From the NCBI GenBank assembly GCA_002787155.1, contig PCVY01000022.1, forward strand, positions 29,336-92,618: a stretch of 63,283 bases of DNA. Reading direction: 5' to 3'. The position numbers were made by a program, and so were the translations under genes. This stretch comes from Candidatus Abzuiibacterium crystallinum. GTDB lineage: Bacteria; Omnitrophota; Omnitrophia; Omnitrophales; Abzuiibacteriaceae. The first letter of the stretch is position 1; each line of letters starts with the position of its first letter. Of this stretch, positions 1,356 through 63,283 are shown piece after piece. The notes beneath the pieces are model-generated. The model worked only from the letters and a program-made list of their open reading frames with translations, was not told where the DNA came from and did not search any database.

Positions 1356-1443
1356 CTTTGTCTCCTTGTCCCCTATGAGGTATGATGATGTACAGCTTTT
1401 AACGGAATGACCGAATTATAACATGAACTTGCTTCCAGAATAA

Positions 1444-23512: not shown

Positions 23513-24682
23513 TCATTTAACTTCTGCATCTGTCAACTTAGCCATATGCTCAGCCGCGGTTCCTGCATGCGGTAAACCGTAAACATCGAAGTAATAGGTT
23601 TTCCCAAAAAGTTGCCGTTCCGTTTCAGACAAATAACCTACGACCCCAAAAATAAATAATGACAATAACACCAGGATGCAAAACCCAACCGCAAAAGGAC
23701 GCTTGCGCGGATCCCGTTCTTTGTTTCTATCCAGAAAAGGCCACAAGAACAAAAAGATCGGCGCTAAGGTAACGACAAAAATACCGGCTAACTTTGGGAA
23801 ATATTTTAGAACTTGGTAGAAAGGCAGGAAGTACCATTCCGGCTTGATGGCGTGAGGTGTCGTGAGCGGATCTGCTTTTTCACCAAGATCAAATGGCGCC
23901 AAAATAGCCAACGTAATTAAAATACCAAGTAAAATATAGAAAACAATACCTTCCTTTAAAACATGGGTCGGAAAGAAAGGCGTGCCGTGTGCTTTATCCA
24001 CTTCTTTTTCCTCATCGACTCTCTCCATGGTTGCAACCCCTTGCAAACGAACCAAAAATAAGTGAATAAGGACAAGTAGAACAAGGAGCCACGGCAAAAT
24101 AATCACGTGAATCACAAAAAATCTAGAGAGAGTTTCACTGCCGACAGACGGTCCGCCGCGCATGAGTGTTCTAATCCATTCACCCACAATAGGCACTGAA
24201 CCGGCCACTTCGGTGCCCACGGTAGTTGCCCAGTAGGCCAATTGATTCCAAGGCAGCAAATAACCTGTAAAACCAAAAATCATGGTGAAAATAAACAAGA
24301 AGACGCCAAAAATCCAAGTGACTTCGCGCGGTTTTTTGTAAGAGCCTGTGATATACGTCCTTAGCATATGAAGAAAAACAACAATGACCATTAAATTAGC
24401 CCCCCAAGCATGCACCTGGCGGTATAACCAACCCATATAGGGTTTGGTCATGATAAATTTGACGCTCTCGAAAGCTTCGTTAACAGTGGGACGGTAATAC
24501 ACCAACAACAAGATGCCTGTTACAACTTGACTTAAAAATAAGAAAAGCGACATGCTGCCTAAAGTGTGGAACCAGCCAACATTATGCGGCAAGGGTTTCT
24601 TGAGTTGTTTTTCAACCGGCCCGCGCATTTTATCGACATCAAAACGCTGTCGTACCCAGGCATCTACCAAACGTTTAATCAT
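23513..24682 (-). CDS. Cytochrome b of a Rieske/cyt b complex (unsplit: b6-like plus subunit-IV-like parts in one chain)
   Basis: N-terminal GWFHTLGSMSLFLFLSQVVTGILL…YRQVHAWGANLMV (haem b His ligands) and C-terminal PEWYFLPFYQ motif. 389 aa. Confidence 0.9.
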   Translation of the reverse strand: MIKRLVDAWVRQRFDVDKMRGPVEKQLKKPLPHNVGWFHTLGSMSLFLFLSQVVTGILLLVYYRPTVNEAFESVKFIMTKPYMGWLYRQVHAWGANLMVIVVFLHMLRTYITGSYKKPREVTWIFGVFLFIFTMIFGFTGYLLPWNQLAYWATTVGTEVAGSVPIVGEWIRTLMRGGPSVGSETLSRFFVIHVIILPWLLVLLVLIHLFLVRLQGVATMERVDEEKEVDKAHGTPFFPTHVLKEGIVFYILLGILITLAILAPFDLGEKADPLTTPHAIKPEWYFLPFYQVLKYFPKLAGIFVVTLAPIFLFLWPFLDRNKERDPRKRPFAVGFCILVLLSLFIFGVVGYLSETERQLFGKTYYFDVYGLPHAGTAAEHMAKLTDAEVK

Positions 24683-24722
24683 GATTTAATTCCTTTGTAC
24701 CTCAAAAAAACCGGCGATCATT

Positions 24723-25184
24723 TCATAACTTCACAAAAATTTTTCCATCAACTACTCTGACTGTGTGACCAACCAAAGATTTAGGCGGCGGTCCCGAAAT
24801 CACCCTGCCTTCAACATCAAAAAACCCGGCATGACAGGGGCATTCAATGAGGCGTTTATCAGCACTCCATTCAACCAAACAACCCAAATGCGTACACACA
24901 GCCGAATAAGCCTTAAAACTCTGAGGTGTTCTTAAAAGAATCATCGGACTTTCCCCGATCGAAATCTTTTTTGCTCCCCAAACTGCAAGATCATCTTCAC
25001 GGCCCACTTCCACCATACCGCCGACAGGCCCCCTTCTTGTCACGGGCCATAAATAGGTAAGCGCCGGCAAAAACATACCCAAAAGCGTTGCCAAAAACCC
25101 GCCTTTAAGAATCCAATCTAAAAAATGACGTCTTGACGTTTCCGGCTGTTCTGCATGATTTGTTTTCATATCGGACACGGTCAC
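24723..25184 (-). CDS. Rieske [2Fe-2S] protein
   Basis: Twin-arginine-like N-terminus (TSRRHFLDW). Cluster boxes CTHLGC and CPCHAG. GTG start. Confidence 0.9.
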   Translation of the reverse strand: MTVSDMKTNHAEQPETSRRHFLDWILKGGFLATLLGMFLPALTYLWPVTRRGPVGGMVEVGREDDLAVWGAKKISIGESPMILLRTPQSFKAYSAVCTHLGCLVEWSADKRLIECPCHAGFFDVEGRVISGPPPKSLVGHTVRVVDGKIFVKL

Positions 25185-38641: not shown

Positions 38642-39724
38642 TTAGATATTGAAGAAAAATTCGGGTATGGCGACCAAATACTTTAAGTTAAACGCCCAAC
38701 GCAAATACATTTTAATAGGAACGGCAATCACCATTAACAAAAGAAAGGCGGCGACCGCATAACGCACGGCACCCATTTCTTGGAATGCTTTTTTACAAAA
38801 AGTTTTCGCAGCCATAGCTGGCGGTATTAACAAATAAGCCAAAACCAGCAGAATACCGGGCAGTTCCCTTAGGTACCATTGACTCGGCAGTCCCCATCCC
38901 AGCCATTTGATAAAAACAAACTCGGATAAGTTGACGTTGAGAAGCGGAACCACTTTATGCACATTCCATACTTCAAACGGTCCAAAAAAGTTCCAGTTAG
39001 GCCCTCTTAAGAATGTCCCCAAAACAATCAAGACAATCCAAAGCATCCAAAAACAAAACAAGAATCCGCTGATCCAAACCCGCCTTTGTTGATACGAGTA
39101 ATAACCTGATCCTTTGGGACTCCGGTCCAGGTAAGGAATCGCGCACAAACCAATGATAATTAAAGTAGGCAGTAAGACGCCGGCAATCCAAGGATCAAAA
39201 TAAACCAAGAGTTCCTGCAGGCCTAAAAAATACCAGGGGGCCTTCGAAGGGTTAGGCGAAATAGACGGGTTAGCCGGATCTTCCAAAGGCGCTTTAAGCG
39301 CCAGCGACCAAACCACGAGCATAATCGAATAAAAAAGCGCAACGACAAACTCAATAAAAATGAGATAAGGAAACACGAGAACTTTTTGTTCGGATTCTTC
39401 TTTCTCAAGAGGGCCCTTGCCTTCCGCCATGCGCATATCGTTGACCGTCGCCTTACGCATGGCATACCACGTAAAATAAAGCATAATAAAAAGCATCATG
39501 ACGATCGGAACATTGTCAGGTGTGGTAATGATCATTTTAAAATGCTCATCCGTTAAACCGAAAATAAAAAATGCGACCACCAGAATGCCAAGAGGCCCCG
39601 CTACTTTCGGAGCAGTCAGTTGCCCGGGAAATGAGAGGAAAAGAAAAAGGAGTCCCGTTCCCAACGTAAACATCATGACCGGAGATGAAATTTGATTAAA
39701 GAAATGTTTGATCAATTCAGCCAT
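38642..39724 (-). CDS. Subunit-IV-like (C-terminal half of cytochrome b) membrane protein, extended
   Basis: KAPWYFLGLQELL (PEWY-type Qo motif) and about 8 TM segments. ATG at 39724 lies 5 nt after the cyt b6 stop; the track TTG is at 39733. Confidence 0.8.
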   Translation of the reverse strand: MAELIKHFFNQISSPVMMFTLGTGLLFLFLSFPGQLTAPKVAGPLGILVVAFFIFGLTDEHFKMIITTPDNVPIVMMLFIMLYFTWYAMRKATVNDMRMAEGKGPLEKEESEQKVLVFPYLIFIEFVVALFYSIMLVVWSLALKAPLEDPANPSISPNPSKAPWYFLGLQELLVYFDPWIAGVLLPTLIIIGLCAIPYLDRSPKGSGYYSYQQRRVWISGFLFCFWMLWIVLIVLGTFLRGPNWNFFGPFEVWNVHKVVPLLNVNLSEFVFIKWLGWGLPSQWYLRELPGILLVLAYLLIPPAMAAKTFCKKAFQEMGAVRYAVAAFLLLMVIAVPIKMYLRWAFNLKYLVAIPEFFFNI

Positions 39725-39729
39725 AGAGA

Positions 39730-40536
39730 TCAAAGCGGCCCGCTAATGCCGCCATCCTTTCTGATACGCCAAAAGTGAACCGCCATTAAGATCACCACAA
39801 CAACGGGAATGGCCACGCAGTGCAAAATATAAAAACGAAGCAGCGTAGCTGCCCCGACAAACCGGCCGCCTAAAAGCGCAAAACGCGCATCATCCCCAGC
39901 ATGAATGAGTTGAATATCGCCAATCGAAAGTAAAGAGGCGCCCGGGCCTTCATAGCCTAGGAAAGGTGTGGCACGCGCCATGTTGGAACCAACGGTAATG
40001 GCCCAAATCGCCAATTGATCCCACGGAAGCAGGTACCCCGTGAAACTGAGCAACATCGTTAAAACCAAAAGAAGCACGCCGATCACCCAGTTGAATTCGC
40101 GAGGCGGTTTGTAAGAGCCTGTCATAAAAACACGCAGCATGTGCAGCCAAACCGTGATCACCATCGCGTGAGCGCCCCACCGGTGGAGTTCGCGCATAAT
40201 CCCAAAAGGCACGTGTTCGCGGAGTGCCACAATATCGGTATACGCATATTCAACCGTCGGCCGGTAGTAGAACATCAATAGAATGCCGCTCACCACTAAC
40301 GTAAGAAAAACAAAGAAAGAAAGCCCGCCGGCGCACCAAGTAAATCCAAAACGAGCACCTGATTTTCTGACCTTAACGGGATGCAGGTGAAAGAAAACGT
40401 TGGTTAAAACAGTGAGCGCACGGTCCCTGTCGTCGGTTTTATAACCGTGACGAAAAATTGATTTCCAAATTTGACCTTGTGTGACTGATTTTTTGATCTC
40501 TTCAAAATTAATTTTCGGGAGTTCAAATTTTTTCAT
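39730..40536 (-). CDS. Cytochrome b6-type subunit (N-terminal half of cytochrome b)
   Basis: FFHLHPVKV…, [28 protein letters not shown] at 40536 with GAGGAA upstream is preferred over the TTG at 40548. Confidence 0.9.
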
Positions 40537-40554
40537 GGGGTTCCTCAAATCAAA

Positions 40555-41169
40555 TTAAAGTTTCAAAAATGCTTCGGAATTACTCAACTCGCCTTTTTCC
40601 TGATGAAAAGATTTGCTTTTATCAATCACAATTTGTCCGTCATCAGCTAAACCGATTTTCAAACGTTCCAAAGGTCTCGGCGCCGGTCCTTCAAAGTTAA
40701 TGCCGGATTTATAAAAACCGCTCCCGTGACACGGGCATTTAAATTTTTGCTCGCTTTCAAGCCAATTGGGCGTACAGCCTAAATGGGTACAAACCGCCAA
40801 AAGCGCATAAATGCCTTCAACCGTTCTAACGACCCACACGCCATACTTTCCTTTCCAACGCAAATCCACCACACCCACTTCATAATCATCGGGATAACCG
40901 ACTTTAAAAGTACTTTTGGGTTCAAAAAGCACATTGGGGAACATAAAACGCAGCACAAAAGAAAGGGCCCCCGCGGTAGCGGCAACAAAAGTGAGCCACG
41001 CAATGGTAAACCACGAAAGAAATTGCCGGCGGCCAGGGACAGAGATTTCCGGCGCAGGTCTTTTCAGTGCTGGTTCGGCTGTTGCGGCGGGTGCAGCGGG
41101 TTTCGGCGCGTCAGCAGATGGTTTGGGTGTCGGTGACGGATCAGGCTTCGGCGCTATCGGTTCATTCAT
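40555..41169 (-). CDS. Rieske [2Fe-2S] protein with a Pro/Ala-rich N-terminal extension
   Basis: PGRRQFLSW (Tat-like), one TM, cluster boxes CTHLGC and CPCHGS. Confidence 0.9.
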   Translation of the reverse strand: MNEPIAPKPDPSPTPKPSADAPKPAAPAATAEPALKRPAPEISVPGRRQFLSWFTIAWLTFVAATAGALSFVLRFMFPNVLFEPKSTFKVGYPDDYEVGVVDLRWKGKYGVWVVRTVEGIYALLAVCTHLGCTPNWLESEQKFKCPCHGSGFYKSGINFEGPAPRPLERLKIGLADDGQIVIDKSKSFHQEKGELSNSEAFLKL

Positions 41170-41172
41170 GTT

Positions 41173-42042
41173 TTATTTCGACTGTTGTTGATGCTGAAGT
41201 GCGGTTAAAGCTTCTTGTCTCACTTTTAAACTGGGGTCTTCCCTTGATATTTTTTCTAATATTGGTACAGATTCTTTTCGACGTATGTGCGTAAAACCTT
41301 TTGCGGCATTTGCCATCACGGTTTCGATTTGTTTTGGATCCATTTCAAAAGCATTGATCAAATAATTTCGATCAAGTATTTTCACCAAAACTTCCCACCC
41401 GTCGTCATGGCCCAAACGCGCCAAACTTAAAGCGGCATTCCAACGAACATCATTGGCCGGATCATCCAAATGACGTTTTAAATCCTTCACCGCCTTTTGA
41501 TTGTTTAAAACACCCAGCACATATGCTGCTGTTTTCCGGTTGTCGCTTTGATCGCTACCCAAAAAACGGAGCACCTCCGATGCGCTGTCAGGATTGCCAT
41601 ATTGACCGATGGCCCACATTAAAAAGATAGGCAATTCGCTCACATCGTTTAAATCAACTTTTGCTAAAGCCGATCTCAAAGCTCCTTCTGCTTCCGGGCT
41701 CTCGAAACGGCTGAGCGCCATGGCCATGTAAGCACGGGTTTTGGCATCATAATGCGTATCGTCATTCAACATGTGAATAACGTCCGCCATGACACCCGAA
41801 CTGCGCAGAAGCCCTTCTTGATGATTAAGTTCGTTCGCTAACTCATAGGCTTTCTGCCACTTTTTGCTGGGCGCGCCCGTTTTGATAGACGAAATCAGCG
41901 ACTGAGGCGTTTCATCTTCTTTGGTTAAGAAGACAATCACCGAAAGCATCAGCACCATGGCTGCTGCAATCAATAACGGAAAAACAAATAAGCCAAAGAA
42001 CAGTTTTTTCTGGGCATTTGGCTCTTGTGTTTGTTTATTCAT
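41173..42042 (-). CDS. Membrane-anchored HEAT/PBS-lyase-like repeat protein
   Basis: N-terminal TM (LFFGLFVFPLLIAAAMVLMLSVIVFL), followed by repeated helical units with D..VR..AA.AL patterns. First gene of the respiratory supercluster. Confidence 0.65.
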   Translation of the reverse strand: MNKQTQEPNAQKKLFFGLFVFPLLIAAAMVLMLSVIVFLTKEDETPQSLISSIKTGAPSKKWQKAYELANELNHQEGLLRSSGVMADVIHMLNDDTHYDAKTRAYMAMALSRFESPEAEGALRSALAKVDLNDVSELPIFLMWAIGQYGNPDSASEVLRFLGSDQSDNRKTAAYVLGVLNNQKAVKDLKRHLDDPANDVRWNAALSLARLGHDDGWEVLVKILDRNYLINAFEMDPKQIETVMANAAKGFTHIRRKESVPILEKISREDPSLKVRQEALTALQHQQQSK

Positions 42043-42243: not shown

Positions 42244-45200
42244 CTAAGCCCGAACGGCCAGTTCGCGGGCATTTTGGAATTGTTGGATGAGATTGGCAGC
42301 AACAACACCCAGGAAATCACGCACAAAACTTAAGACATTATCGATATAGACGATCTCATCCGCCACACGTTTCAAAAGAAAATCCATGGGTCGATCCCGT
42401 TCGCTTGCAAAAAGACGAATCGTCCCGACGCCAAGGCTTCTGAGTTCTGAGCGCGCTTCCTCATAACTCTTGGCAGTCATGATTTTGTGATCCGGAAAAT
42501 GGCCGGCAACCGCTTCGACCATCATTCGATCCGCTTGAATGGGAGTAATAATGACCAAATAGCCGGGAATGATCTTTGCCAAAGGTTCCAGTGCCAAACC
42601 AAGCGATTCACCAAACACAAGCTGGGGTGTGAAAATATTGCCTATGTTACTTTCATCGGCCGATGGGTTTAATTGAAAAACATGTGTCACGAGATCGGTT
42701 CGTGTTTCGGTTTGTGCCGTTTGCGCTTGTTGATGTAAAACATTCATGAGATCCGTCACGGCTTGCTCAGCCGGCAAAGCTGTTACCTGGCTCAGCGATA
42801 AAAAAGCTGCCGGTAATAAATTTTGAAAGTGACGTAACTCCGAACGCTTTTTCTTTTTACGCGGTTTGGGCGGCTTGCGTATTTCGGGAAAACCGATGCC
42901 GCGCGCACGTCCTATGCCGTCATTTCCAGCTGAACCAACTTGACCTGCAGCTTTTTTTTCATTCAATTTTTTTTCAATCCAGGGATCGATGCCGCTCGAC
43001 CCGGAAGACACAGCGCCTGAAGACCTGGCTGATGATGACCAAGTTCCGTAAGCCGCTTCCTTCCCCCGCGATGTGCCGCGATGTCGTTGGGTGCCCGGCT
43101 CCCACATGGTGAACTCCACAAATTCACGATCGAGGTCTATCCGTTTCACATAAACTGTTAGTTCGTAACCTGCCATCCCCTCCAACTCTCGCTCCGAACT
43201 GACAGACTTATCATCAACTAATACATTTGCGATATAAATGAATCCGCGCAGTCCCTCTGCGGTTACAACGTTTAATCCATTTCCCTTGCTGGTCACGCTT
43301 TGAACGGTTACGTTCAACGGCTGATCTTTTTGGTCTTGTAAAGCTTGAATAGCGGCCCGGCGGTCAATACTTCTGTTTTCTGCGAGCGCTTTTTGTGCCT
43401 GACTGGGATCATCTAGAAACGACAAAACCAAACTCATCTCACCGCGATAATGTTTGACGTCGATAATGGCTGCCTCAAATGTTTGGCCGATCACTTGAGA
43501 ATAGTTCTCACGGAGCGCCTTGATTATTTCCGGCCGTAAATGACTAAAAGGCACAAAACCTCGAACGCCTGCAACATCAACTTCTAATCCAGACATGGTT
43601 TCCGAGCGCTGCCTTCGCAAAAACCCAAAATCACCTCCAAAGGAGTAAGCTTCGCGTGTCACTCTGACCTGTACTTTTTGACCTTTTTTCAGACGGGCGC
43701 GTTCGCCTTCACGAATTGAAAATTTGGCTTCCTGCCCGCGGCCTCTACGTGATTCTTCTAACTCCGTAACGGTCGCCGGAAATTCCTTACCAAGCATATG
43801 TTCTTCCAAAAGCGCTAAACGTTCCCGAAGCGCTAAATTGCGCGAGTCTTCTGCTATGCCAGGCCCAAAGCGAACAGGTACAAATCCGCGAACGCCTTTG
43901 TAATCTACTTCAAAACCAACCACATTCCCTTCATTTGCCGTTTGTAATTTAATGATGACGCGTGTCACAGTGACGGGAAAAACAGGTTCTGGTTCTACAT
44001 CACCGCCGCCTATGCTTTCTCTTTCATAACGATCATCTCTCAAAGGTTCATGGCCATAACCCAAGCCCATTGAATCTTCAAAACCCAGCGGATCATCGTA
44101 GTCCCTTCTTGGTTCAAATCGGCTGAGATACCTCTCAGTCTCTCTCATAGCCAGCATGGCTTGTCGACTACGAAAAGTCTGTCCGATAGACAAAGCTTCC
44201 TCCAATTCCTGAATGGCAGCAGCGGTCACTTCCGGTGCTGGTTTTTTAACTTCAAACGGGGTCGATTGAACTCTGTCTGGTTCTTCAGCATCTAAAATTG
44301 AAAAGGTTGGCTCCAGGCCTTCGCGCCGTCTGTCCAGCGCATGAAGCGTCGCTCGAAAAGTTTTTCCCACCATTAAGTTGTTAATGAGAACAGGCCTATC
44401 GCCTTCTCCAACGACTTCGCGCAAAGCAAGTCTTAACGGCACAAAACCGCGTAAACCCTTGTAATAAACTTCCAAACCAATCGCTTTTTCTTGAGCGGGG
44501 CGATCGTAGTAGCGATACTGAGAAGGGCGTTCTGTCCTTTCATTTTTTTTGGTCATCACACGCAAAACTAAGATCTCAAAAGTTTTATTTGGGTTTTCTC
44601 GGCCCTCTTTTAATTCTTCAAGCGCCTCTTTTGATATCAGTCTTTCAGCGTCTGAGACTGAGAAAATAGGTTCCCGTACGTTCTGATTACTTGAGCCCCT
44701 ACGAAATTTCAGCTCAACCAGTTTCGCCGGGAAAAATTGATCGACCACCACCTGTTCAAGCCGTTCCGATGTCCAATCTGCCGCTCTGCCATAGAGTTTC
44801 GGCCGCTTTCCGTACGGCAAAAAACCTCTGAGACCGTTGTAAGAAACCTCAAAACCAGCGACGCGGTTGCCATCGATTCTTTTATGAACGACCATTTTGT
44901 TAATCCGGATATTGAAAATGCGCTTTGGATCTCTTTCCGCTTCTTCAAGTTCACGATAAGCTTTGGGGTGAACCGCTGTCAAAAATGGCGGGCCTTCTTC
45001 AGGCACAGCCGTCACAAAAACGTCGAGTTCGTTTTCCTCGCCAAAAATTTCTTCGGGCGCAGCCGGAAGTCCTGACCGCATGATGACACTTTCAATGCCT
45101 TTATACGAAACCGCAAGACCGTCAGCCGCACGATGCTCAGGGCTGCTGTAATATAAATCTTTTATTTTTGCCCTCAGCACAACCGGTGCGCCTGTCGCTT

Positions 45201-48200
45201 GCTCTGAAGCAAGTGCTTCTTTTAATTCTTGCATCGGATCCTTAGCAGGAACCGGCGCCTCTTCTAATTCTGTTTCGTCTTCTTCTATTCCTAATAGATT
45301 GCTTAATAAATCAATCGAACCGTATTCCATCTCGCTCAACGAACCAATATCACTGATAGTCAATAAAACCGGTCCGAGGCCATCATCCAAAACCCGCGCG
45401 CTGAGTGTTGCGAGCGGAAACAAGTAGCGGGATTCAAGCGAGTAAGAAGGGAGCGCGGCACCATATACATACCTGCCATAACTTTGGAGTTTTTTTGAAT
45501 CCATTCCGGGAAACACAAATAATGAGAGAGTTTGAGCCACCCTGTCAGGATCAAACACAGCCAATCCGATTACCTTTGCCTCTTCACCTTTGTTTTGCGA
45601 GACAATCACGTTCATTCGGTAATGACGCAGACCTTTGGGTATTCCGCCTGAAAACAATCGAGAAAGATAGGCCAACGCTCTTAAGGCATGAGGATCAGTC
45701 ATGTCCAGTGCGTATTCGTCCCACTCTCCAGAATAAGTTGTGCTTTGTGCGGTCTTTGATGCTGCTCTCAACTTAAATTCTTTCTGATCAAAAGTAGACG
45801 CTGAAGATTGTGTTGGGGTTGCCTCTTGCACTATCGGCTTGAACGCCACAAAGGTCGCTGCATTATTCTTCCGAACCTTTGTTTCTACCTGTGCAAAATG
45901 AACACGCTCTTTCAGAAGTTTTTCAGCCAATAGCTTGCCGGAACCGCGAAAGTGACGGTTGACCCAAGTCTTATAAATTTCCGGCTGACCGCTAAAATCA
46001 ATGATTTGAAATCTTTGCAACTTTTCACCGATAAACTCCTCACTCGGTAAGAAAGCCAATCCTATTACTTCAGGCGTTTTTTCAGAACCTTTTCTCTCAC
46101 CCATGATCAGAAAAAAGCTGCCGCCTGATGTATGGATCATGTCAAGCTGACTTTGCGGCGAATGGGTTTCTAACTTTTCGAGAAATCCGGAAATCGCATG
46201 TACATTTGATGAAACAGCGTCAGGAATCAATACTTCGAAAATAGATTGAAAAGGATCCGGAGGACGGCTGAGTGAATCAACATGGCGCTGATTAGTAAAA
46301 AATACCTGAAATCCGGCTTCTTTTGGTAATGTGATGGAAAGTTGATGATCACCAAAAGATTCCCCTTTGGAGACAGCATGCATTTCTGCCGATTCAATTT
46401 CAATATCAGGTTCGTTTTGAACGTTTACAAGAGGCGCCTCTTCTAGAAAAAAAGTATCGGCCCAGGCGCGTAACTGAAATTCGTTTACGAATGCTTGCAA
46501 TGGTTCAACCGGCATGTTGAGACGAAATAGGCGATACTTTTCCTGATTGGAACTTTTGATCACCAAAGCGTAGCTGGGTTCTTCGGCAGCTAGTTCTAAA
46601 ACAAATATGCCATACCCCGCGCTCCAATGGTTTCGTCCCCTTGCATCTAAGCCTGCTTTCCACAAAAGATCCGTCACGGCTTGCTCAGTAAAATGATCGC
46701 CCCATTGAATCTCATACCAATTCCATGTTTGGCCCGCTTTGTCGACTTTGGTTTTGGTTTCATCTTTCGTTAATCGGACATGCAACATACCCTGCGCAGT
46801 TTCTTCGCGGAGTTCGGAACGACGTGCCCTTTCTCCTTTTCCTCGTACTTCACCGATGGTCAGTAATATTTGCTCCTCTAAAGGACTCGCGGGATCAGGA
46901 CGGATATGCACCGTTACCAAAACGGGCCCCAGGCCTTCAACTATGATATAACCAATCGACGGCGCTCTTTCTGAGAATGACGTGTCGCTGATTTGAGCAA
47001 CTGTTTTGATATTTTGAAAAGCAGTTCTAGCTTCCGCAACGGGCGCGTGGAGATGCTGGGTCGTGGGTATTTGATCATGCAGATCTTTAGTTTGTAATTC
47101 AATGAAACCGTCCCGGTAATTAAGCTGAACTCTTACAATTTGACGCGAGTCATCCAAAATCATCGGCTTGATGACTTTCTCGAAAAATTCATGAGGCCCT
47201 TCGATTGCTGTTTCCGGCAGAGGTAACGACTCATTTCTGAGTTCGGCGCGGGTACCCGATAATGCAACATCCTCAAACTCCAATACCACAAAACGCTTGA
47301 TAAAAGCTTCTGTCAATAAGTCGATCATCAGCGTCCGGTCTTCAGGAGATAATGTGCCGGCATAATCAACCAAAGCCCATAAAACATTTTCGTCTTGAAC
47401 AGAAAGGAAACCTTTTAATTGATCGATGGTTTCACCTGTGCCGTCGTTTTGCATTGTCATTTTGATAACGGCGACCTGCCTAAGAGCATCTTCTTCCAAA
47501 CTCTCAAGCCTGGCCCGGTAAAGCGCCGCTTGCCGCATCACCCACTCAGCATCTTGATCTTCAAGTTCTTTGTGCAGCCATTCCGTGATGTTTTTTTTCC
47601 TATTTGTCTCTTGAATCATTGAATCATTTTCTGAAACATGTTTGCCGGAGCGCGGGTCGAAATAAAAAACGATAAAGCCGGCCGTTCGATAGGCATAAAC
47701 TTCTGCTAAAAGATCAATCGCCACTATGCGATCCACGGTGCTCAATCTGCCAAGGCGCGAGAAAATGATAAACTTGCGGTAATCAAACTCTGAAATATAC
47801 GAATTATTATTCAGATCATTCAAGACAGAGTTGATTTCGCCCAACAACGCATCGTTGTCCATGCGCTTTAATTCTGCAATATAGTCATTAATAGACTGAA
47901 GGGTAGACGGTAACTTTCCTGCAGGTATTCTTTCTGCGATGCGGCGTAAAACAATATCACGCGTCCGCTCGAGATGAATATCAAGAACACCTGAGTCATG
48001 AGGTGATACAACTTGAGATACTGCTAAGGAAGTCCTAAGTTCTGATTTCATCTCTCCAGATGCAGACAATTCATTTAACCGGAGAATTTGATCGGGCGCC
48101 AAAAGGTTGCCGGTTTTCTTGATTTCTAAGAAAGACATGGGTTCCTTTTCCAAAGCATCGAGAACAGAGGGAACATCCGAATAGGTGAAAGCGGTCGAAA

Positions 48201-48303
48201 CAGAAAATGAAAACAACACGGAAAAAGCGGCTGTTTTCAGCGCTAAACAATGGAGTGGTTTTCGGTGGTGAAGTGGCTGCACGGTCTTATTTAACTTTGC
48301 CAA
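42244..48303 (-). CDS. Giant (2019 aa) hypothetical protein: unknown N-terminal ~1000 aa, six S1-like OB-fold repeats, a basic/Ser-rich linker, and a C-terminal module shared with the other giant ORF
   Basis: Uninterrupted 6.06-kb ORF. The repeated block [VI]xGxEVxYxGxRGFxP…G[KQ]xFxAxxxxxx resembles ribosomal protein S1 domains. The start is uncertain: TTG at 48303, or GTG 6 codons later; there is no nearby ATG. A hydrophobic segment lies near the N-terminus. Confidence 0.85.
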   Translation of the reverse strand: MAKLNKTVQPLHHRKPLHCLALKTAAFSVLFSFSVSTAFTYSDVPSVLDALEKEPMSFLEIKKTGNLLAPDQILRLNELSASGEMKSELRTSLAVSQVVSPHDSGVLDIHLERTRDIVLRRIAERIPAGKLPSTLQSINDYIAELKRMDNDALLGEINSVLNDLNNNSYISEFDYRKFIIFSRLGRLSTVDRIVAIDLLAEVYAYRTAGFIVFYFDPRSGKHVSENDSMIQETNRKKNITEWLHKELEDQDAEWVMRQAALYRARLESLEEDALRQVAVIKMTMQNDGTGETIDQLKGFLSVQDENVLWALVDYAGTLSPEDRTLMIDLLTEAFIKRFVVLEFEDVALSGTRAELRNESLPLPETAIEGPHEFFEKVIKPMILDDSRQIVRVQLNYRDGFIELQTKDLHDQIPTTQHLHAPVAEARTAFQNIKTVAQISDTSFSERAPSIGYIIVEGLGPVLVTVHIRPDPASPLEEQILLTIGEVRGKGERARRSELREETAQGMLHVRLTKDETKTKVDKAGQTWNWYEIQWGDHFTEQAVTDLLWKAGLDARGRNHWSAGYGIFVLELAAEEPSYALVIKSSNQEKYRLFRLNMPVEPLQAFVNEFQLRAWADTFFLEEAPLVNVQNEPDIEIESAEMHAVSKGESFGDHQLSITLPKEAGFQVFFTNQRHVDSLSRPPDPFQSIFEVLIPDAVSSNVHAISGFLEKLETHSPQSQLDMIHTSGGSFFLIMGERKGSEKTPEVIGLAFLPSEEFIGEKLQRFQIIDFSGQPEIYKTWVNRHFRGSGKLLAEKLLKERVHFAQVETKVRKNNAATFVAFKPIVQEATPTQSSASTFDQKEFKLRAASKTAQSTTYSGEWDEYALDMTDPHALRALAYLSRLFSGGIPKGLRHYRMNVIVSQNKGEEAKVIGLAVFDPDRVAQTLSLFVFPGMDSKKLQSYGRYVYGAALPSYSLESRYLFPLATLSARVLDDGLGPVLLTISDIGSLSEMEYGSIDLLSNLLGIEEDETELEEAPVPAKDPMQELKEALASEQATGAPVVLRAKIKDLYYSSPEHRAADGLAVSYKGIESVIMRSGLPAAPEEIFGEENELDVFVTAVPEEGPPFLTAVHPKAYRELEEAERDPKRIFNIRINKMVVHKRIDGNRVAGFEVSYNGLRGFLPYGKRPKLYGRAADWTSERLEQVVVDQFFPAKLVELKFRRGSSNQNVREPIFSVSDAERLISKEALEELKEGRENPNKTFEILVLRVMTKKNERTERPSQYRYYDRPAQEKAIGLEVYYKGLRGFVPLRLALREVVGEGDRPVLINNLMVGKTFRATLHALDRRREGLEPTFSILDAEEPDRVQSTPFEVKKPAPEVTAAAIQELEEALSIGQTFRSRQAMLAMRETERYLSRFEPRRDYDDPLGFEDSMGLGYGHEPLRDDRYERESIGGGDVEPEPVFPVTVTRVIIKLQTANEGNVVGFEVDYKGVRGFVPVRFGPGIAEDSRNLALRERLALLEEHMLGKEFPATVTELEESRRGRGQEAKFSIREGERARLKKGQKVQVRVTREAYSFGGDFGFLRRQRSETMSGLEVDVAGVRGFVPFSHLRPEIIKALRENYSQVIGQTFEAAIIDVKHYRGEMSLVLSFLDDPSQAQKALAENRSIDRRAAIQALQDQKDQPLNVTVQSVTSKGNGLNVVTAEGLRGFIYIANVLVDDKSVSSERELEGMAGYELTVYVKRIDLDREFVEFTMWEPGTQRHRGTSRGKEAAYGTWSSSARSSGAVSSGSSGIDPWIEKKLNEKKAAGQVGSAGNDGIGRARGIGFPEIRKPPKPRKKKKRSELRHFQNLLPAAFLSLSQVTALPAEQAVTDLMNVLHQQAQTAQTETRTDLVTHVFQLNPSADESNIGNIFTPQLVFGESLGLALEPLAKIIPGYLVIITPIQADRMMVEAVAGHFPDHKIMTAKSYEEARSELRSLGVGTIRLFASERDRPMDFLLKRVADEIVYIDNVLSFVRDFLGVVAANLIQQFQNARELAVRA

Positions 48304-49990: not shown

Positions 49991-50401
49991 TCAATGCCCT
50001 CCTTGATTTAAAGCTTGATTCACCAATCGATCGGCTTGTTTGATCATCACGTGTTCGCGCGGAAGATGGTGATAAGTTACCGAATCAAGTTGTTTTGCCG
50101 CTCGACGAGCGCGCTCTGAGAGCGTGCGGATATGATCTGTTTTGATTTTAAAACTTCCATTCATTTGATTCATGAGAAGTTGCGAGTCGGTATAACACTG
50201 TAAGGATTTAGCTTTAAGGCGATACGCTATTTCCAAACCTGCGATTAAAGCACAATATTCGGCAATGTTGTTGGTGGCTTCACCAATGGTATCTTGATGT
50301 TCAAAAACAACTTCATCTTTTTCATTACACACCACCACACCAATAGCGGCAGGGCCTGGATTACCGCGCGCCCCGCCATCTGTATAAATTTTAAGTTTCA
50401 T
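49991..50401 (-). CDS. rnhA: Ribonuclease HI
   Basis: MKLKIYTDGGARGNPGPAAIG…NNIAEYCALIAGL…TDSQL (DEDD catalytic residues). The track start at 50455 (MGSDPPGSDPW…) is the translation of the 28-nt palindrome and is rejected. Confidence 0.85.
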   Translation of the reverse strand: MKLKIYTDGGARGNPGPAAIGVVVCNEKDEVVFEHQDTIGEATNNIAEYCALIAGLEIAYRLKAKSLQCYTDSQLLMNQMNGSFKIKTDHIRTLSERARRAAKQLDSVTYHHLPREHVMIKQADRLVNQALNQGGH

Positions 50402-50425
50402 AGCAATGACCCGGAGTTTTATCCA

Positions 50426-50453
50426 GGGGTCAGACCCGGGAGGGTCTGACCCC
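50426..50453. repeat. 28-nt GC-rich perfect palindrome (REP-like), copy 2 of 2
   Basis: GGGGTCAGACCC-GGGA-GGGTCTGACCCC is the exact reverse complement of 7174-7201. It lies in the 68-bp cysE-rnhA spacer. Confidence 0.85.
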
Positions 50454-50469
50454 AAGTTTAAAACTTTTC

Positions 50470-55555: not shown

Positions 55556-58500
55556 TTAAGCGGCGATTGCAACCTGAACTCTATTCTTCAGATCGTTTAC
55601 CAATTCACGCGCTAATCCAATCACGCTCAAGAAACGCTCAACACCATCCACCACGCGCAAGGTTGCATCCATCGTCAATTTCTCCAACACATACCGGCCA
55701 TAAAGGCGGTCGGCCGGAAGCGCGATTACCTGGGCACTCGAAGCACGTAATTCGCTTCGGAGGATATGATTTAAATCAGCAATAGAACGCGCCACGCGAA
55801 CACGCTTTGCTGGCGGCATATCTGCCATCAGTGCTTGTACCTGAATGGCTTCTGCTTCGTTACCTACTAATGCAACTAAGGGATGTTCGTCAGCGATTGC
55901 TTGAGCCACCGGGAGCAAGGTAGCGCCTAATTCGCGGTTAAATTCGGGTAAAAACACCAAAGCTTCACGGCTGGTCACATTTTCAGTCAGTGCCGATTCC
56001 GCCGCAGAAGACCCGTTGACATTTTGACCGGAAATGACATTTGCAGCATCCGGTGATTGGCTGCCGGCAGCGACGCTAAGCGCAGCCAAGATGATTTGTG
56101 TTTTACTTTTCAAATCAAGCGCCGCAACTGCGTGTTTAACTGCTTCTGCGCTTTGTAAAATATTTCTTAATGTACGCGGCGCATAAGCGCTTTTTACGTC
56201 CAATGTTTCAAAATCAAGACGCAGCTCTGAACGTTCCCGAGGTGCCGACTTCTCAGTTTGCGCATTTTGCTGCAGCAGCGGCTCATAAAGTGTCTCGGGT
56301 TGTTTTGGTTTTAAAACCAATTGACTGGCTAGAGCTTCTAGACGAGAAGCTATGTGATCTAAATCCTGTAACCCGGGTTCTATCACTCGAATACCATGTG
56401 CAATTTTGGTGTGTAAAATAATTTGACCTATTTCGCCAAAAAGCTTGTTGAACCGTTCTAACCGGTCATCCCCCGCATTGATAAAATTGACGAGGATTTG
56501 TGCCGCATCAAAATGCGACCTAAGTTCACGCAATGAACGGCCTTTCGGCATTTCAAATTGCCGTTCAATCGAGTCAAGTGCTGCCAAGCCTTGGCTTAAA
56601 ATAAGATCAACTTGATCAACAGTTTCGGTCTTCACTTCAAGCGATTGCACAAATTGAATAATTTGTTCGACTGACTTGGATGCCCTTTGAATTGGCGTGC
56701 GAACACTTTCAATGCCGGTCAAATGCGGTAACTGTAAACGAATCTCTTGTAAGACTCTCGACAGCGTATGCAAATCTTTAACTGTAATCAATTCGTCGGA
56801 ATCTTTGCCGACCGCACGGATAATGAGATGAATAGCCTGATCCAAATGGCGAATCACTGGTTTTAAGGACCGATTGGCCGGCAACGCTTGTTTTGTTTGG
56901 GCCTCTTCCAGCAATACTTTAATCAAAGCCAGCTTGGCTTTCACAAAATTAAGCGTGGCAATCGATGGACGTGCCTTGGGTCTCGTAACCGATGTTTCCG
57001 GTTGTGTTTCTATTTGAGTACGTAATTCCGCTTTCGGACTTTCTTGCGCCAAAATAGCTTCCCCTTCTAGCACGATTTCCCCAGAATCTGGTTGATCTCC
57101 ATCTTCTTCCAGCACCACTTTAAAAATACCGGATGCTGCGTTGACGGGTGCCGCTACCAAATGAAAATCTCCAAAGAACGACCCTTGTAAAAAACGGAAA
57201 TTAGATTCGCCTGAACGCTTAATCCGAGGCAGAACATCTTGCAAATGAGAAATCAATTGATCAGAAACCGCTTGGTCTGATGCGCCGCGAAAAGCGCCGC
57301 GGTTAATAAAATTGATCCGGAGTTTCACCGCACCGTTCGGAATGCTGAGACGGTCTAATTCGGCAAATACCGATTCCACGGTCGGAAAATGCAAAAGAAT
57401 ATTTCTTTTAAGCCGCTCACTTTGCCATTTGTCGACGGACTCTTGACGGTCTTCCCACGGCAGCCACATCTCATACAAAGACTTTGTCTCAAGCGGATTA
57501 ATTTGAGGTTCGTCAGGCACCAAAGTGCGCCGCACGTGGATAAGAAGCGCGGCTGTCAAACCTGCTAACAAGCGATTGGTTTTCTCATCCTGGCTCTGTG
57601 TACCGAATGCTACTTTCGGAGACGTGTTCGATTGCCCCCAAAAGATTTCTCCCACCGGGGTGATTAAATGATAAACACCCTCTTCGTTCACCAGCGTATA
57701 GGTCGTTGGTATTGCCTGACCAAGACCGGCATTGTAATTTTCCCAATTTTCAAAGTAAGTAAAATCTCCGCGGCCGGTAAAATAATTAATCATGCGATCA
57801 CGCATGGTGTCCATTACAAGTGTTTTGGCATCATCCGACATCGGCATGCGCTGCTCTTTCAATTGAAAGTAAGGAATGATCCCTTCATCGGTCTTCAGAT
57901 GTGTAAGATATTCTGCGTAAGACCAGTTTTGCAAATGTTTCTTCTTGATAGCCGCAAAAACCTGCAGCCAATAAAATGCAAAGTCTAAGGCATCGTCAAA
58001 AGAATTAATGAAAAGATGAAGCGAATATTCAAATTGAACCAAATTAAAACCCGGATATTTTGCCTGGAAATCTTGGACGCTCTTCACACCTTCTTTTTCG
58101 GCTAAACCCCGCATGATTAAATCCATGGTTGCCTTTACTTTAGAATGGCCTTTGGGATGAACGCCTGAGAGGCCCCCGAAATGGGCAATGGCTTGCCCCA
58201 TCCCGGCATTCATGCGCGCATCACGATAGAAAATCTTACTGAAGTCGCCATACGGATCGAGTGTTAATTTATATTCGATAATCGGATAAGACATATCATC
58301 GCCTAAATAGAGTTCACCTGCCTGCAAGAGACTGACGCGGTCCACATCTAAATCGAAATTAAGAATCAAAAGGTCAGGATGATTGCGGGAATAGTCAACA
58401 ATGTTCGCATCCGGATGCGAAAGTGCTTTGGCATCCTTGCGGGACGGGTCCGCAAGTCCCTGACGCGCCCAAGGATCTCCCTGACTTTTTAGGAGTGTGA

Positions 58501-61500
58501 TATCTGGACCAAAAAGTTCTCTGAAAAATTCAACGTATTCGGCGGCAGAACCGGCATTTAAATTAAAGGCAACTTTCATATGGGAAACTTTGAGCGTTTG
58601 TGCCAGATTGCCATATTTTGCTCTCAAAGAATCAAGGTACATTTGGCGGGCACGATCTCTCGTCGTTTGCGAATCATCTAACGATCCTTCTTGATCGGCT
58701 TTTTCATACTCGGCGGATAAAATCTGAGCTTTCACTGCTTGCAGCATTTCCCCGTAAAGCGTGATACCACCGATATTTGGTTTCGCACCATTGGTACCGA
58801 CTTCCACATGGCTCCGGGTCACATAAAGACCGCCCTGCGCCCCTAGATTGCCGATACTCTTGTAAAGTTCGCCGGACACCGCCACACCAAGATCAATCAC
58901 ATTCACACCCGTGTCACGTAAACCTGCAATCAAAGCCGCTTTAAACGATTGGGTTGAAGGACCGTTGTCACCGGCAATTACAAAGGTATCGCCTGTTTTT
59001 AACCCAACTTTTTGATCGTGACGGCGTGAATAGAATTCAACGGTTCCAAGCGCGCGGCCTATCCAACGCAGAAGGGTTTCATCCACTTCTTGCGGGAAAT
59101 TTTGATCATCGGCACCGTCAAAACCTCTGAAATCGTATTCTTTGACAAATTTATTTAAGATTTGCTCCAAACTTTTACCGTGCTTGGACTGCCACGTCAA
59201 AATGCTTTCGTCTTTGACCACGGCGCGCAATTCTGATCGTGAGGTTGGAGAGTTCACTGAAAGATCTAACAAATCATGGATGACGATAAACTGATCCAAC
59301 TCTGTCACAGCTCGATCCAACAATTCAAGCTGCACAAGTTCTGCCGCTGTATGAGGAACGCGGCTATGATTTTCACGAATGCTTTTCAATGTTCCTTGAA
59401 CAGCATTAATGGTCCCCACTAATTCTTCAAAGTTTTGCCGCTCCACGATGGATATTCGATCGCGTCTTTTGGCAGCACCGTCACGCGATTGCCTGATGAG
59501 TTGATTGGTATCCACGGTTGAAGTCGTGCGAATGCTCAGCCACTTTTGTATCCATTCCTTAAAATCAGAAGAAGGCTGACTAGCAGGACTTGAAAATAAC
59601 CGGATAATCTCTAAAGAGAGTAAGCGAAGTCGGTTATGTTTAGCCATTAAGCCAAGAAAGATACGGTCAATCACAATGGTTTCAGAATCTGCTTGTGAAA
59701 TTGGTGAGGTTGCTCCTGCGGCAACTTCGGTCGTTTTAATATTCTGAAGTTCCGAGGGGATATTTTCTAAATGACCATTGCTAACTGATCGGCGGCTGGC
59801 AATTCTTAATGCCTGCTGATAGAAGCTCGGCAATGCTGCGACAGCTTCTTCAATTAATTTGTCTTTGGCATTTGGGATTTGTTCTACGTCCAGATTTGAT
59901 TTGGCTAGTCTCAAACCCTTGCCATAAATTTGTATCGTTTTCTCAATGCCGTTTAAGAATGCTTGGTATGATTTCTTCTTGGGGTGATTCTTTGGTAAGG
60001 TACTGACAAATTGTTTCCACCGAACTAATAATTGAAGCCGGCGTTGAATCTCCTGCTGGGCTGGTCGAACGCCCACTTCTTCAACTAAACTTTGGACATC
60101 TTCCGGTGTCATCGAAAGACCCTTTGCCTTCAAGAGAGCTGCTTCTGCTTTAGCGAAAGGCGTGTCTCCACTCACATATTTTTCGTGCCATTCTCGAATA
60201 CGCTGATTGGTCACGCGATCCGCCGCCGCTGAGGTGGGAATATTTTCCTTAACGGACATCTCCAGAATTTCATGAACGGTATCACCGATTTGTGCGATCT
60301 TTTCATCAAGTGTCAGTCCTTTTGTGTCATCTTTTAACAGATCCCATCCGGCCGCAATCAGTCCGCCTGCATTTAAAATGTAATCCGGAACATATAAAAT
60401 ATTTTCTTGGTGAAGCCGGTCGCCGTCCGCTTCTCTAGCCAGCTGATTATTAGCAGCACCGGCAATCAACTGAAATCCGGCTGCTTTTAAACGGGGAATC
60501 GTTTTTTCATTCAAAATAGCGCCGACAGCATTAGGACTAAAAACTTCGGCTTCTTTCACATCGTAAACATCATCCGGATGATTCAAAATGACAAGTCTGC
60601 CTGCTGCAATCTCTGGAGCATATTTTTTTCTGAGCTGTTCAAGCAAAGCTTGATTCACGTCCGCGAGATAAACTTTCTTCGCGCGCTCACCTAAGTCATC
60701 ACTACGCATCCATTTTTCAAGCAATTCACCCCCTACGCTGCCCGCACCCTGACTGGCAATGGTGATATTTTGCAAACCGCCGGTTCCAAACTTTTGGCGC
60801 ACACCGCCGCGAATACCGGCCATCACACCTCTAGCCGTATAAGCTGCGGGGATTCTGCCGCCATGATCAATTAATTCATCCCCGGTTCCGACCATCGTCC
60901 AAGGGGCTACAGCAGCCATGGCTGCTACATCTTGATCCGAAGTATTCATGTCAACAGCAGTCAAAATAATTTGCAATTGATTAAGCGCGCGCGCCACATA
61001 CTGTTGGATACGCTGCTTTCGTTCTTTGTTAGCGGGATCTTTCGGGTCAAAGCCTGCTTGGATCACGACTTTACCGCCCGCCCATTCCACGCCTGAGCCG
61101 GCTGACTTATGTCCCATACCTTCGCCTAAGCGCTCATTATCGATTAAAGCATCTACTGGGGTTGGGTAATTTTTAATCCGTGTACCGCCCAAAGCCCAGC
61201 TGCCGTGAAAAGCCTTTCGAAACGCATCAATGAACGCCCATTCTTCTGTCATACCTTCGGCTTCTACTACTTCCTGACGTGCTTGCCAAACGCCATACGC
61301 CAATTTAAATTGCGCGATCGACGGATGAGCGATCGAGGGATAAAGACTCACATATGCTTTCGTATCCGTTTCAAACGGAACGGGGATTTCGTAGAGCGCC
61401 ACATGATCATGCCAATATTCACGTGCCGGCGGCGGCAAAAGTTCTTTAATAGTATATTTTAAAACTTCCGCATCCGGCATCCCGGCAATGTGAACTTCAT

Positions 61501-63232: not shown

Positions 63233-63283
63233 TGATTGTAAAATGTGAATAACGGTTTCGCTTTCTGTCCAGGCTCCGCCTTC

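Follow-up and report, generated by a model that had tools for sequence, protein, structure and literature searches.

Two giant open reading frames (ORFs), here called p1 and p2, lie on the minus strand of a 63,283-nucleotide stretch of contig PCVY01000022.1 from Candidatus Abzuiibacterium crystallinum; this whole stretch was analysed and is referred to below as the window. We tentatively propose, at somewhat under an even chance, that they belong to an undescribed family, found in one lineage labelled 'Candidatus Omnitrophica', of membrane-targeted polyprotein precursors that would be cut, as we infer, at the recurring pentapeptide R[SA]ExR. Judged from their sequences, members of the family appear to start with a signal-like leader, to have their first R[SA]ExR near residue 85 and to continue through a changing series of unrelated, protein-sized modules to a C-terminal tail. 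Among the modules are enzymes, RNA-binding repeats and small membrane segments. R-[S/A]-E-x-R, in which x is leucine in the clade of the window, marks every junction between modules, and the tail always ends in alanine. p1 (42244-48303; 2019 amino acids (aa); on record as P0001, P0005 and P0006) comprises a leader, modules separated by (R/K)(S/A)ELR and a tail. p2 runs from 55556 to 63283, where the ends of the window and of the contig remove its first 1052 aa and leave 2575 aa visible. This visible part is identical to P0002, and the full-length protein, P0010, of 3627 aa with 13 motifs, was recovered by cluster look-up from a 108 kb JGI contig. Both ORFs read as a first-pass annotation of the window had described them, one of 2019 aa and one continuing beyond 63283. 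The same annotation called their cores unrelated, and a comparison of the two cores shows no relationship.

Within the window the motif is confined to these two proteins. Translation of all six frames yields nine SELR, against about 0.18 expected, and 9/9 copies are in frame within p1 or p2: four in p1, together with one RAELR, and five in the visible part of p2, together with KAELR, RELR and EELR. It is the most over-represented tetrapeptide in both proteins, for which composition predicts only 0.10 and 0.09 copies. None of 20,000 shuffles of either protein matched the observed count (joint Poisson P ~5e-13), and [SA]ELR is absent from the 14,354 residues of the other window ORFs of at least 150 aa. 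The first-pass annotation had counted four SELR plus AELR in p1 and five plus AELR, RELR and EELR in p2, had noticed none in other proteins of the window, and had judged the motif far more frequent than chance would allow. The six-frame scan returned the same counts with no copy outside p1 and p2 in any frame, and the shuffles agree on the excess. In p1 the motifs outside the tail are KSELR at aa 86-90 (48034-48048), the first past the leader, RAELR at aa 352-356 (47236-47250) and RSELR at aa 495-499 (46807-46821). Those of the visible part of p2 are HSELR at aa 240-244 (62552-62566), QSELR at aa 574-578 (61550-61564), RSELR at aa 1349-1353 (59225-59239) and KAELR at aa 2084-2088 (57020-57034). 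Hydrophobic residues are depleted over roughly 10-15 residues around the motif, proline is enriched at positions -3 and -2, and the median distance between motifs is 211 aa.

RSELR is also reported in the literature as a conserved region of polysaccharide lyase family 7 (PL7) alginate lyases, where its companion motifs are QIH and YFKAG(V/I)YNQ. An enrichment that merely reflected this catalytic motif, R(S/T)E(L/V)R, or else composition or chance, has next to no probability in view of the P value above and of the recurrence of the motif in unrelated contexts and in other family members. A PL7 identity was itself rejected for p1, p2 and their relatives P0003 and P0004, which lack QIH/QVH and YFKAG and have no lyase match in Pfam.

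The codons of the motif copies in the window draw on both families of serine, leucine and arginine codons, with a usage indistinguishable from background. Across the window clade serine is encoded by TCN or AGC, leucine by CTN or TTR and arginine by CGN or AGR, and no DNA repeats joining motifs or tails were found in the window. Because the synonymous codons vary like the background while the peptide is exact, the constraint lies on the peptide, and in the window clade the motif is under protein-level selection. This is what the annotation had held when it described conservation of protein and not of a DNA repeat.

The second element common to p1 and p2 is the tail. Tail 1 spans 200 aa (42247-42846), precisely the interval singled out by the first-pass annotation, from its opening RSELR (42832-42846) through the last codon, with an internal RSELR at 42439-42453. 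Tail 2 spans 225 aa (55559-56233), with an opening RSELR at 56219-56233 and an internal one at 55745-55759, and ends ...AIAA. BLASTP aligns the two with 25% identity over 216 residues (29.3 bits, E = 3e-5). Their Smith-Waterman score is 89 against 33.6 +/- 5.4 for shuffled sequences (z ~10), and with the motifs masked it is still 65 against 31.6 +/- 4.8 (z ~7); in neither case did any of 2000 shuffles score as high. When p2 was left out of the profile, the alignment to its tail was still collinear up to the last residue (12.6 bits, single-comparison P = 5e-6). In a 10,000-sequence search with the same profile the p2 tail fell below threshold, and it is therefore considered a divergent member of the type, which we call type A. 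The likeness that the annotation had seen by eye, and for which it proposed pairwise and profile alignment, is thus one of homology.

Further proteins ending in this module exist, as the annotation had supposed they might. An exhaustive search of 1.84 billion representative proteins with a two-tail profile returned four clusters, namely the two query proteins, P0003 (600 aa) and P0004 (at least 3200 aa). Both additional proteins carry the motif, and their tail matches reach the C-terminus or nearly so. The p1 tail matches that of P0004 with E = 1.9e-23 and that of P0003 with E = 1.9e-13 (BLASTP), and alanine is the last residue of all four type-A proteins. Word-indexed homologue searches with tail 1 or with the four-tail alignment returned nothing, a weak negative in that the query's own protein was missed too; with full-length p1 such a search returned p1 alone, and a scan of genome contigs with p1 found no relative. 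Of these searches we rely on the exhaustive one. The tail has no match in Pfam, NCBIfam or PADLOC, and sequence-profile searches of the PDB with two tail types gave nothing. Neither tail nor motif is matched in these libraries or in the literature, in keeping with the annotation's remark that it knew of no described family. With its significant alignments and only four clusters found, the shared tail is a real, very rare protein module.

A structural model of the tail from the two-sequence alignment was too poor to use (predicted local distance difference test, pLDDT, 45), and the four-sequence model is usable for residues 65-200 only. Over that range (pLDDT 70-90) it predicts a Rossmann-like alpha/beta domain of five strands and, after it, a long C-terminal helix. 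Tail 1 thus reads, in order, as the opening RSELR, a weakly hydrophobic helix, the Rossmann-like domain, the internal RSELR and the long helix ending ...AVRA. Foldseek searches of the model against the PDB and BFVD returned only generic Rossmann- or HUP-like matches (E >= 0.002, template modelling score <= 0.4). A cysteine or serine protease was considered for the tail and rejected, as the four-tail alignment has no conserved pattern of histidine, cysteine or serine.

The proteins are also alike at their other end. The N-termini of p1 and P0010 align with 24.3 bits (E = 2e-4). Both have a basic stretch and a hydrophobic stretch followed by ...A(F/I)(T/A)-YSDVP, which reads ...AFT-YSDVP in the signal-peptide-like leader of p1 (48169-48303). 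The annotation's picture of two proteins sharing their tail therefore stands, its implication that the tail is the sole shared end does not. The first motif follows at aa 86 in p1 and, as QSELR, at aa 84 in P0010; in P0003 a classical signal peptide precedes the first motif, which is at aa 53. Public gene calls place the start of p1 differently, giving 2019 aa (TTG start), 2012 aa or 1964 aa (ATG at MSFLEIKK), and the similarity of the two leaders favours a long start (2019 or 2012 aa). Apart from the leader, p1 has no membrane helix. The 1052 residues of P0010 that lie outside the window add its leader, a further seven xSELR motifs and five segments that strongly resemble membrane helices. 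Several such segments in P0010, P0004 and the metagenome locus L090 start 6-18 residues past a motif, a placement that would suit N-terminal signal anchors of released units. The topology of P0010 was also assessed by the positive-inside rule, which gave contradictory answers.

Between the motifs, the recognisable modules are ordinary proteins of cytoplasmic type. The QSELR at aa 574 of visible p2 opens a segment with a leucine/tryptophan-dehydrogenase-like module (60191-61240; Pfam ELFV_dehydrog_N and ELFV_dehydrog), which matches NCBIfam ScyB with E = 4.7e-50 and leucine dehydrogenase chains of the PDB with E = 3.6e-43, covering residues 39-345 of 364, and retains the LGGTR and GGK strings. 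The RSELR at aa 1349 then separates this segment from that of a phosphoglucomutase/phosphomannomutase (PGM/PMM)-like module (58046-59161; Pfam PGM_PMM_I, NCBIfam PgmG with E = 6.7e-15, PMM/PGM matches in the PDB), which has the SH active-site string and the DxDxDR loop of a phosphohexomutase. p1 has no match to any Pfam family. Its aa 1569-1732 (43108-43599) resemble S1-like oligonucleotide-binding-fold repeats, in which G(L/V)RGF(V/L)P strings recur; the NCBIfam rpsA models match them weakly (E = 1e-9 to 1e-6, far below the family cut-offs), and they sit within a motif-free segment of 1325 aa. No internal repeats were found in p1 or p2. At the DNA level, p1 contains an exact 22-nt direct repeat (AGATCCGTCACGGCTTGCTCAG on the plus strand; 42749-42770 and 46667-46688) that encodes EQAVTDL about 45 residues past the RSELR at aa 495 and about 25 past the tail-opening RSELR. 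It could have arisen by duplication or conversion, within p1, of a segment that follows a motif.

Relatives of p1 and p2 carry other modules of the same ordinary kind: a Nudix/IDI-like domain in P0003, crotonase and PIG-L domains in P0004, and elsewhere an amino-acid dehydrogenase, CheR and MTS methyltransferases, a receiver domain, helix-turn-helix, FHA, M23 and GNAT domains, a metallo-beta-lactamase and beta-CASP pair, a transaldolase-like domain and a complete glucose-6-phosphate isomerase (Pgi). The motifs avoid these domains. None of 83 motifs falls inside the 21 recognised domains, where 9.9 were expected (P < 5e-5), and proteins of several domains, such as the two-domain dehydrogenase, the multi-domain PGM and the S1 repeats, are not split by them. 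Placement is most precise in L104, where 556 residues separate two RSEAR motifs and residues 5-546 align with residues 3-545 of a 549-residue PDB chain of glucose-6-phosphate isomerase (697 bits). Since the alignment runs end to end, the motif stands within 4-10 residues of the native protein termini. The annotation had placed the motif near junctions of recognisable segments, and both the domain count and the motif-bounded Pgi bear it out. The giant ORF of L104, which has at least 2670 aa, holds this Pgi in frame (30-1697, plus strand), and transaldolase-like and FHA domains occur in later segments of the ORF.

Comparison of relatives separates what is kept from what changes. P0003 has RSELR at aa 53, RAEFR at aa 208 preceding its Nudix module, and tail-opening and tail-internal RSELR at aa 438 and 532. 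P0004 has seven [SA]ELR-type motifs, including a tail-opening KSELR and a tail-internal RAELK. Motif positions in relatives, which the annotation had proposed to examine, are hence kept at both places in the tail, the tail being the part that can be aligned. P0004 is encoded directly upstream of genes for a HEAT-repeat protein, a Rieske protein and cytochrome b, the same place as p1: in the window a HEAT-repeat membrane protein gene (41173-42042, minus strand; Pfam) lies directly downstream of p1 and opens a HEAT-Rieske-cytochrome b cluster. This gene was used as a synteny anchor, no functional link between it and p1 having been shown. The order giant ORF-HEAT-Rieske-cytochrome b recurs in L082 and nine further metagenome loci. 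Between the p1 and P0004 loci cytochrome b is 94% identical and the HEAT protein 65% identical, and despite this same genomic position p1 and P0004 share the tail and nothing more. Indeed, syntenic giants share tails alone although the adjoining cytochrome b is 87-94% identical. What these comparisons show is that leader, motif and tail persist while the cores are replaced. The HEAT-Rieske-cytochrome b cluster occurs without a giant ORF in some genomes, and neither p2 nor P0003 has an adjoining HEAT gene.

A metagenome scan with the HEAT protein yielded 70 loci. In nine loci among the closest relatives (HEAT identity 54-60%) the HEAT gene has a giant ORF just upstream of it, most of these ORFs being cut by the 10 kb flank at 2,670-3,260 aa. 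The giant ORFs of these sister lineages keep the same pentapeptide with a lineage-specific fourth residue, the position occupied by leucine in the window clade: L090 has RAEVR 13 times, L094 RAETR 11 times, L086 RSEVR six times and L104 RSEAR five times, and L089 has a mixture of RAE[VATMI]R. They all end in alanine, and a tail is common among them (E 1e-7 to 1e-40), with almost nothing else. An hhalign comparison of type-A tails with those of the sister lineages (types B and C) gives a probability of 4% and E = 0.0096; locus, C-terminal alanine and motif are common to both, with sequence homology not demonstrated. More distant loci have a third tail type.

Because this grammar of leader, motif, module and tail resembles that of a polyprotein, we take a polyprotein as its best explanation. 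The gene would be translated as one membrane-targeted precursor, R[SA]ExR would be the recognition site of a putative dedicated endoprotease, and cuts at this site would free the modules as separate proteins. Leader and tail may serve biogenesis, through targeting, docking or control of the processing step. The lineage-specific fourth residue of the motif suggests a recognition factor that co-evolves with it.

Several observations weigh against the polyprotein reading. Pfam, NCBIfam and PDB searches found no protease domain in p1 or p2, and there is none among the annotated neighbouring genes; protease-type matches in two relatives are only scattered M23 or TraB-like ones. A protease might act in trans, encoded elsewhere in the genome. 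The linkers are very short, and how a protease would gain access is not obvious. Conversely, some inter-motif segments are far longer than the enzyme they hold, the leucine dehydrogenase module, for example, lying in a segment of 775 aa. The tail-internal RSELR falls inside a confidently predicted helix (residues 128-137, pLDDT ~90) and not in a linker, so not every copy of the motif is plausible as a processing site; at least this copy looks structural. A cleavable signal peptide would put p1 outside the cytoplasm, which would be odd for S1-like modules, and an extracytoplasmic site is equally odd for the NAD- or sugar-phosphate-dependent modules of the relatives. Finally, in six sister loci (L086, L089, L090, L091, L094 and L104) the DNA of the motif is nearly fixed as CGC-KCY-GAR-NNG-CGG.

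Some of these points bear on a different reading, in which the pentapeptide is an uncleaved linker or docking signal and the giants are intact, membrane-tethered multi-enzyme scaffolds. The partner might be the tail domain or the HEAT protein, or the motif might instead act in membrane insertion and topogenesis. We consider this unlikely. That one motif copy is part of a folded tail helix and that no protease was found in p1, p2 or their annotated neighbours both speak for it. In P0010, moreover, several motifs, on arginine-rich flanks, stand 6-20 residues from membrane-helix-like segments, and in at least 11 loci the gene after the giant ORF encodes a HEAT-repeat protein. The HEAT protein is nevertheless an uncertain partner, given that p2 and P0003 do without an adjoining gene for it and that its cluster exists without a giant ORF. 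Complete proteins such as Pgi have the motif at their ends with hardly any spacer, a placement that fits processing and is not needed for docking.

The near-fixed DNA of the sister loci hints at an additional or different constraint. Of 60 copies, 48 have CGC for the first arginine of the motif and 39 have CGG for the last, where the background is 10-21% per locus, and the pattern CGC-KCY-GAR-NNG-CGG occurs in frame 43 times in the giant ORFs against five times in 2 Mb elsewhere. The 15-mer forms a CGC...GCG mini-palindrome with unrelated flanks, which was not seen in the window clade. A single copy (CGCTCCGAAGCGCGG) on the opposite strand inside the HEAT-protein gene of L100 (position 1258, minus strand) is the only one out of context in a related genome. 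Such invariance amid unrelated flanks, and the wholly different module content of close relatives, would be accounted for if the motif were the in-frame footprint of a 15-nt DNA element by which genes are joined into one ORF, for instance a site of recombination or cassette joining or a tract of gene conversion, with the peptide merely tolerated. We hold this to be quite improbable. In the window clade the codons vary like the background while the peptide is exact, all copies are direct and in one frame, no DNA repeats occur at the motifs of the window, and no recombinase is encoded next to the giants. The sole transposase of the window (11298-12332, plus strand) is of the IS110 family (DEDD_Tnp_IS110 and Transposase_20); it is the only mobile-element gene seen there and lies 30 kb from p1.

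In a bolder form of the polyprotein reading, the lineage would maintain one or more polyprotein loci. Whole genes, including those for housekeeping enzymes such as Pgi, PGM, amino-acid dehydrogenases and S1-like proteins, would be captured and exchanged as in-frame cassettes through a 15-nt, five-residue junction, R[SA]ExR, expressed as one membrane-targeted precursor and then cut by a dedicated protease that co-evolves with the fourth residue. We regard this combination as speculative and on balance unlikely. If true, it would give cells a chromosomal counterpart to the way viruses express polyproteins, with integron-like turnover of cassettes.

The rapid turnover of cores behind a conserved tail is also a trait of effector repertoires, and the giants might be secreted multi-effectors of a logic like that of MARTX toxins, in which leader and tail drive export and the modules are freed in prey or host by a host-activated or co-delivered protease. 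The signal-peptide-like leaders of p1, p2 and P0003 would serve such export, and Nudix, M23 peptidase, PIG-L deacetylase and methyltransferase modules could be imagined as effectors. Omnitrophota have been proposed to be predators or episymbionts in the texts of two preprints (bioRxiv 10.1101/2023.11.21.568195; bioRxiv 10.64898/2026.06.07.730766). Central-metabolism modules sit badly with this view, among them a complete Pgi (697 bits to the best PDB Pgi chain), a transaldolase-like domain, PGM and S1 repeats. Neither a cysteine protease domain (CPD) nor repeats-in-toxin (RTX) repeats were detected in p1 or p2, no secretion-system genes are among the annotated neighbours, and the Rossmann-like alpha/beta tail resembles no known secretion signal. 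The organism of the window, furthermore, encodes a complete chain for aerobic respiration and in this differs from the host-dependent Omnitrophota that the main text of bioRxiv 10.64898/2026.06.07.730766 describes. We judge the effector reading improbable.

The published giant proteins of Omnitrophota form the nearest comparison by phylum. According to the same two preprints in their main text, these range from 10,000 to 147,000 aa and contain C39 or subtilisin-like protease, dockerin and SecA-related domains. They are like p1 and p2 in phylum label, in N-terminal signal or transmembrane anchoring and in multi-domain content. p1 and p2, however, have 2019 and 3627 aa, and Pfam and NCBIfam find no C39 or subtilisin, dockerin or SecA-related domains in them. 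The text of Nielsen and Lui (bioRxiv 10.64898/2026.06.07.730766) states that the aa3 oxidase is absent from 176 complete Omnitrophota genomes, whereas the organism of the window has one. West-Roberts et al. (bioRxiv 10.1101/2023.11.21.568195) suspect, in the main text, that Omnitrophota giant proteins are cleaved, at points that are unknown. Term searches of the main text of either preprint found no mention of a junction motif, a polyprotein or a shared tail.

The family also invites comparison with systems outside the phylum. The literature yielded nothing relevant on the pentapeptides, on a 'bacterial polyprotein' or on polyproteins in Omnitrophota. MARTX toxins have an internal cysteine protease domain, glycine-rich repeats, type I secretion genes and loose leucine-containing linkers as processing sites. 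p1 and p2 are like them in being very large polypeptides with variable, unrelated enzyme modules between conserved regions and short linkers between modules. They differ in having no Peptidase C80 domain or glycine-rich repeats (Pfam, NCBIfam and repeat search) and no type I secretion gene among the annotated neighbours, and in that the family has a fixed pentapeptide and housekeeping-type enzymes in place of loose linkers. The gingipain and HagA polyproteins of Porphyromonas have a signal peptide, a small beta-sandwich C-terminal domain (CTD) for type IX secretion, a C25 protease, and processing at arginine or lysine between modules. An N-terminal signal peptide and a conserved C-terminal domain are common to both systems, and processing at arginine or lysine between modules is a gingipain feature. 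In p1 and p2 the tail is an alpha/beta, Rossmann-like domain with no CTD match in Pfam or NCBIfam, there is no C25 protease domain, and the family's modules are unrelated enzymes where those of gingipains and HagA are adhesin repeats.

Viral polyproteins have consensus junction sites and an embedded protease. As in the family described here, complete proteins lie in one ORF with a short conserved sequence at each boundary. The p1/p2 locus is, however, cellular and chromosomal and lies among respiratory-chain genes, no embedded protease was recognised, and the set of modules differs completely between close relatives. The P97/P102 adhesins of Mycoplasma hyopneumoniae are processed at S/T-X-F|X-D/E. 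There, too, a short recurring motif punctuates large proteins, in that case as a cleavage motif of surface proteins, but the motif is another one, a shared system of tail and leader is lacking, and the products are adhesin fragments and not complete enzymes. Chlamydial Pmp proteins repeat GGA(I/L/V) and FxxN as structural elements of a repetitive beta-helix, and so share with p1 and p2 a tetrapeptide strongly over-represented in large proteins. In the p1/p2 family the flanks of the motif are unrelated, internal repeats are absent and the motifs avoid folded domains. Because domain libraries and literature hold no match and the defining features of these known systems are absent, we rate the arrangement as belonging to no described kind.

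The 63 kb window is part of a cellular bacterial chromosome in which respiratory and housekeeping genes surround both giant ORFs. The neighbours include two cytochrome bc-type complexes, an aa3-type cytochrome oxidase operon with assembly genes, many multihaem cytochromes, cytochrome c maturation genes, a two-component system with a sigma-54 activator, YchF, an endonuclease III-like glycosylase and sugar-modifying enzymes. The COX1 protein of the window is 75% identical to that of 'Omnitrophica bacterium GWA2_52_8', the closest labelled genome, in which CcsA and not a giant ORF lies upstream of the HEAT gene. Fragments of p2 in NCBI are hypothetical proteins of 'Candidatus Omnitrophica bacterium' metagenome-assembled genomes. 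A phage origin was rejected on account of the respiratory and housekeeping neighbours, an anti-phage defence system because PADLOC models match none of p1, p2, P0003 and P0004, and an RNA element because the window has no Rfam matches and no tRNAs.

The region from 13076 to 42042 is unusually dense in respiratory genes, among them those of the aa3 oxidase. It holds two Rieske/cytochrome b complexes (23513-25184 and 38642-41169), a 951-aa multihaem/cytochrome c fusion, several multihaem cytochromes of NrfB, c554 and c7 type, and a COX2 with a carboxypeptidase-regulatory-like domain. Between the giant ORFs, a stand-alone RNase H/RVT_3 domain protein (49991-50455, minus strand) is encoded next to genes for a DegT aminotransferase and a hexapeptide transferase. 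ORFs of 701 aa (13076-15181, minus strand), 276 aa (6311-7141, plus strand) and 157 aa (379-852, plus strand) have no Pfam match.

If R[SA]ExR is a processing site, p1 and p2 would represent a bacterial, cellular polyprotein system with a defined consensus site, from which ordinary enzymes are released out of a giant precursor; we know of no earlier cellular polyprotein system in bacteria with such a site. The motif would then supply, for the giant proteins of Omnitrophota-type bacteria, definite candidate points of cleavage that can be mutated. From its fourth residue, which is L, V, T or A according to lineage, a recognition factor that evolves in step with it is predicted. A fixed locus with wholly different modules in close relatives also raises the question of how genes enter and leave a single ORF in frame. 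Even if the giants are not cleaved, the conserved grammar of leader, motif and tail would constitute a new system of protein biogenesis or scaffolding.

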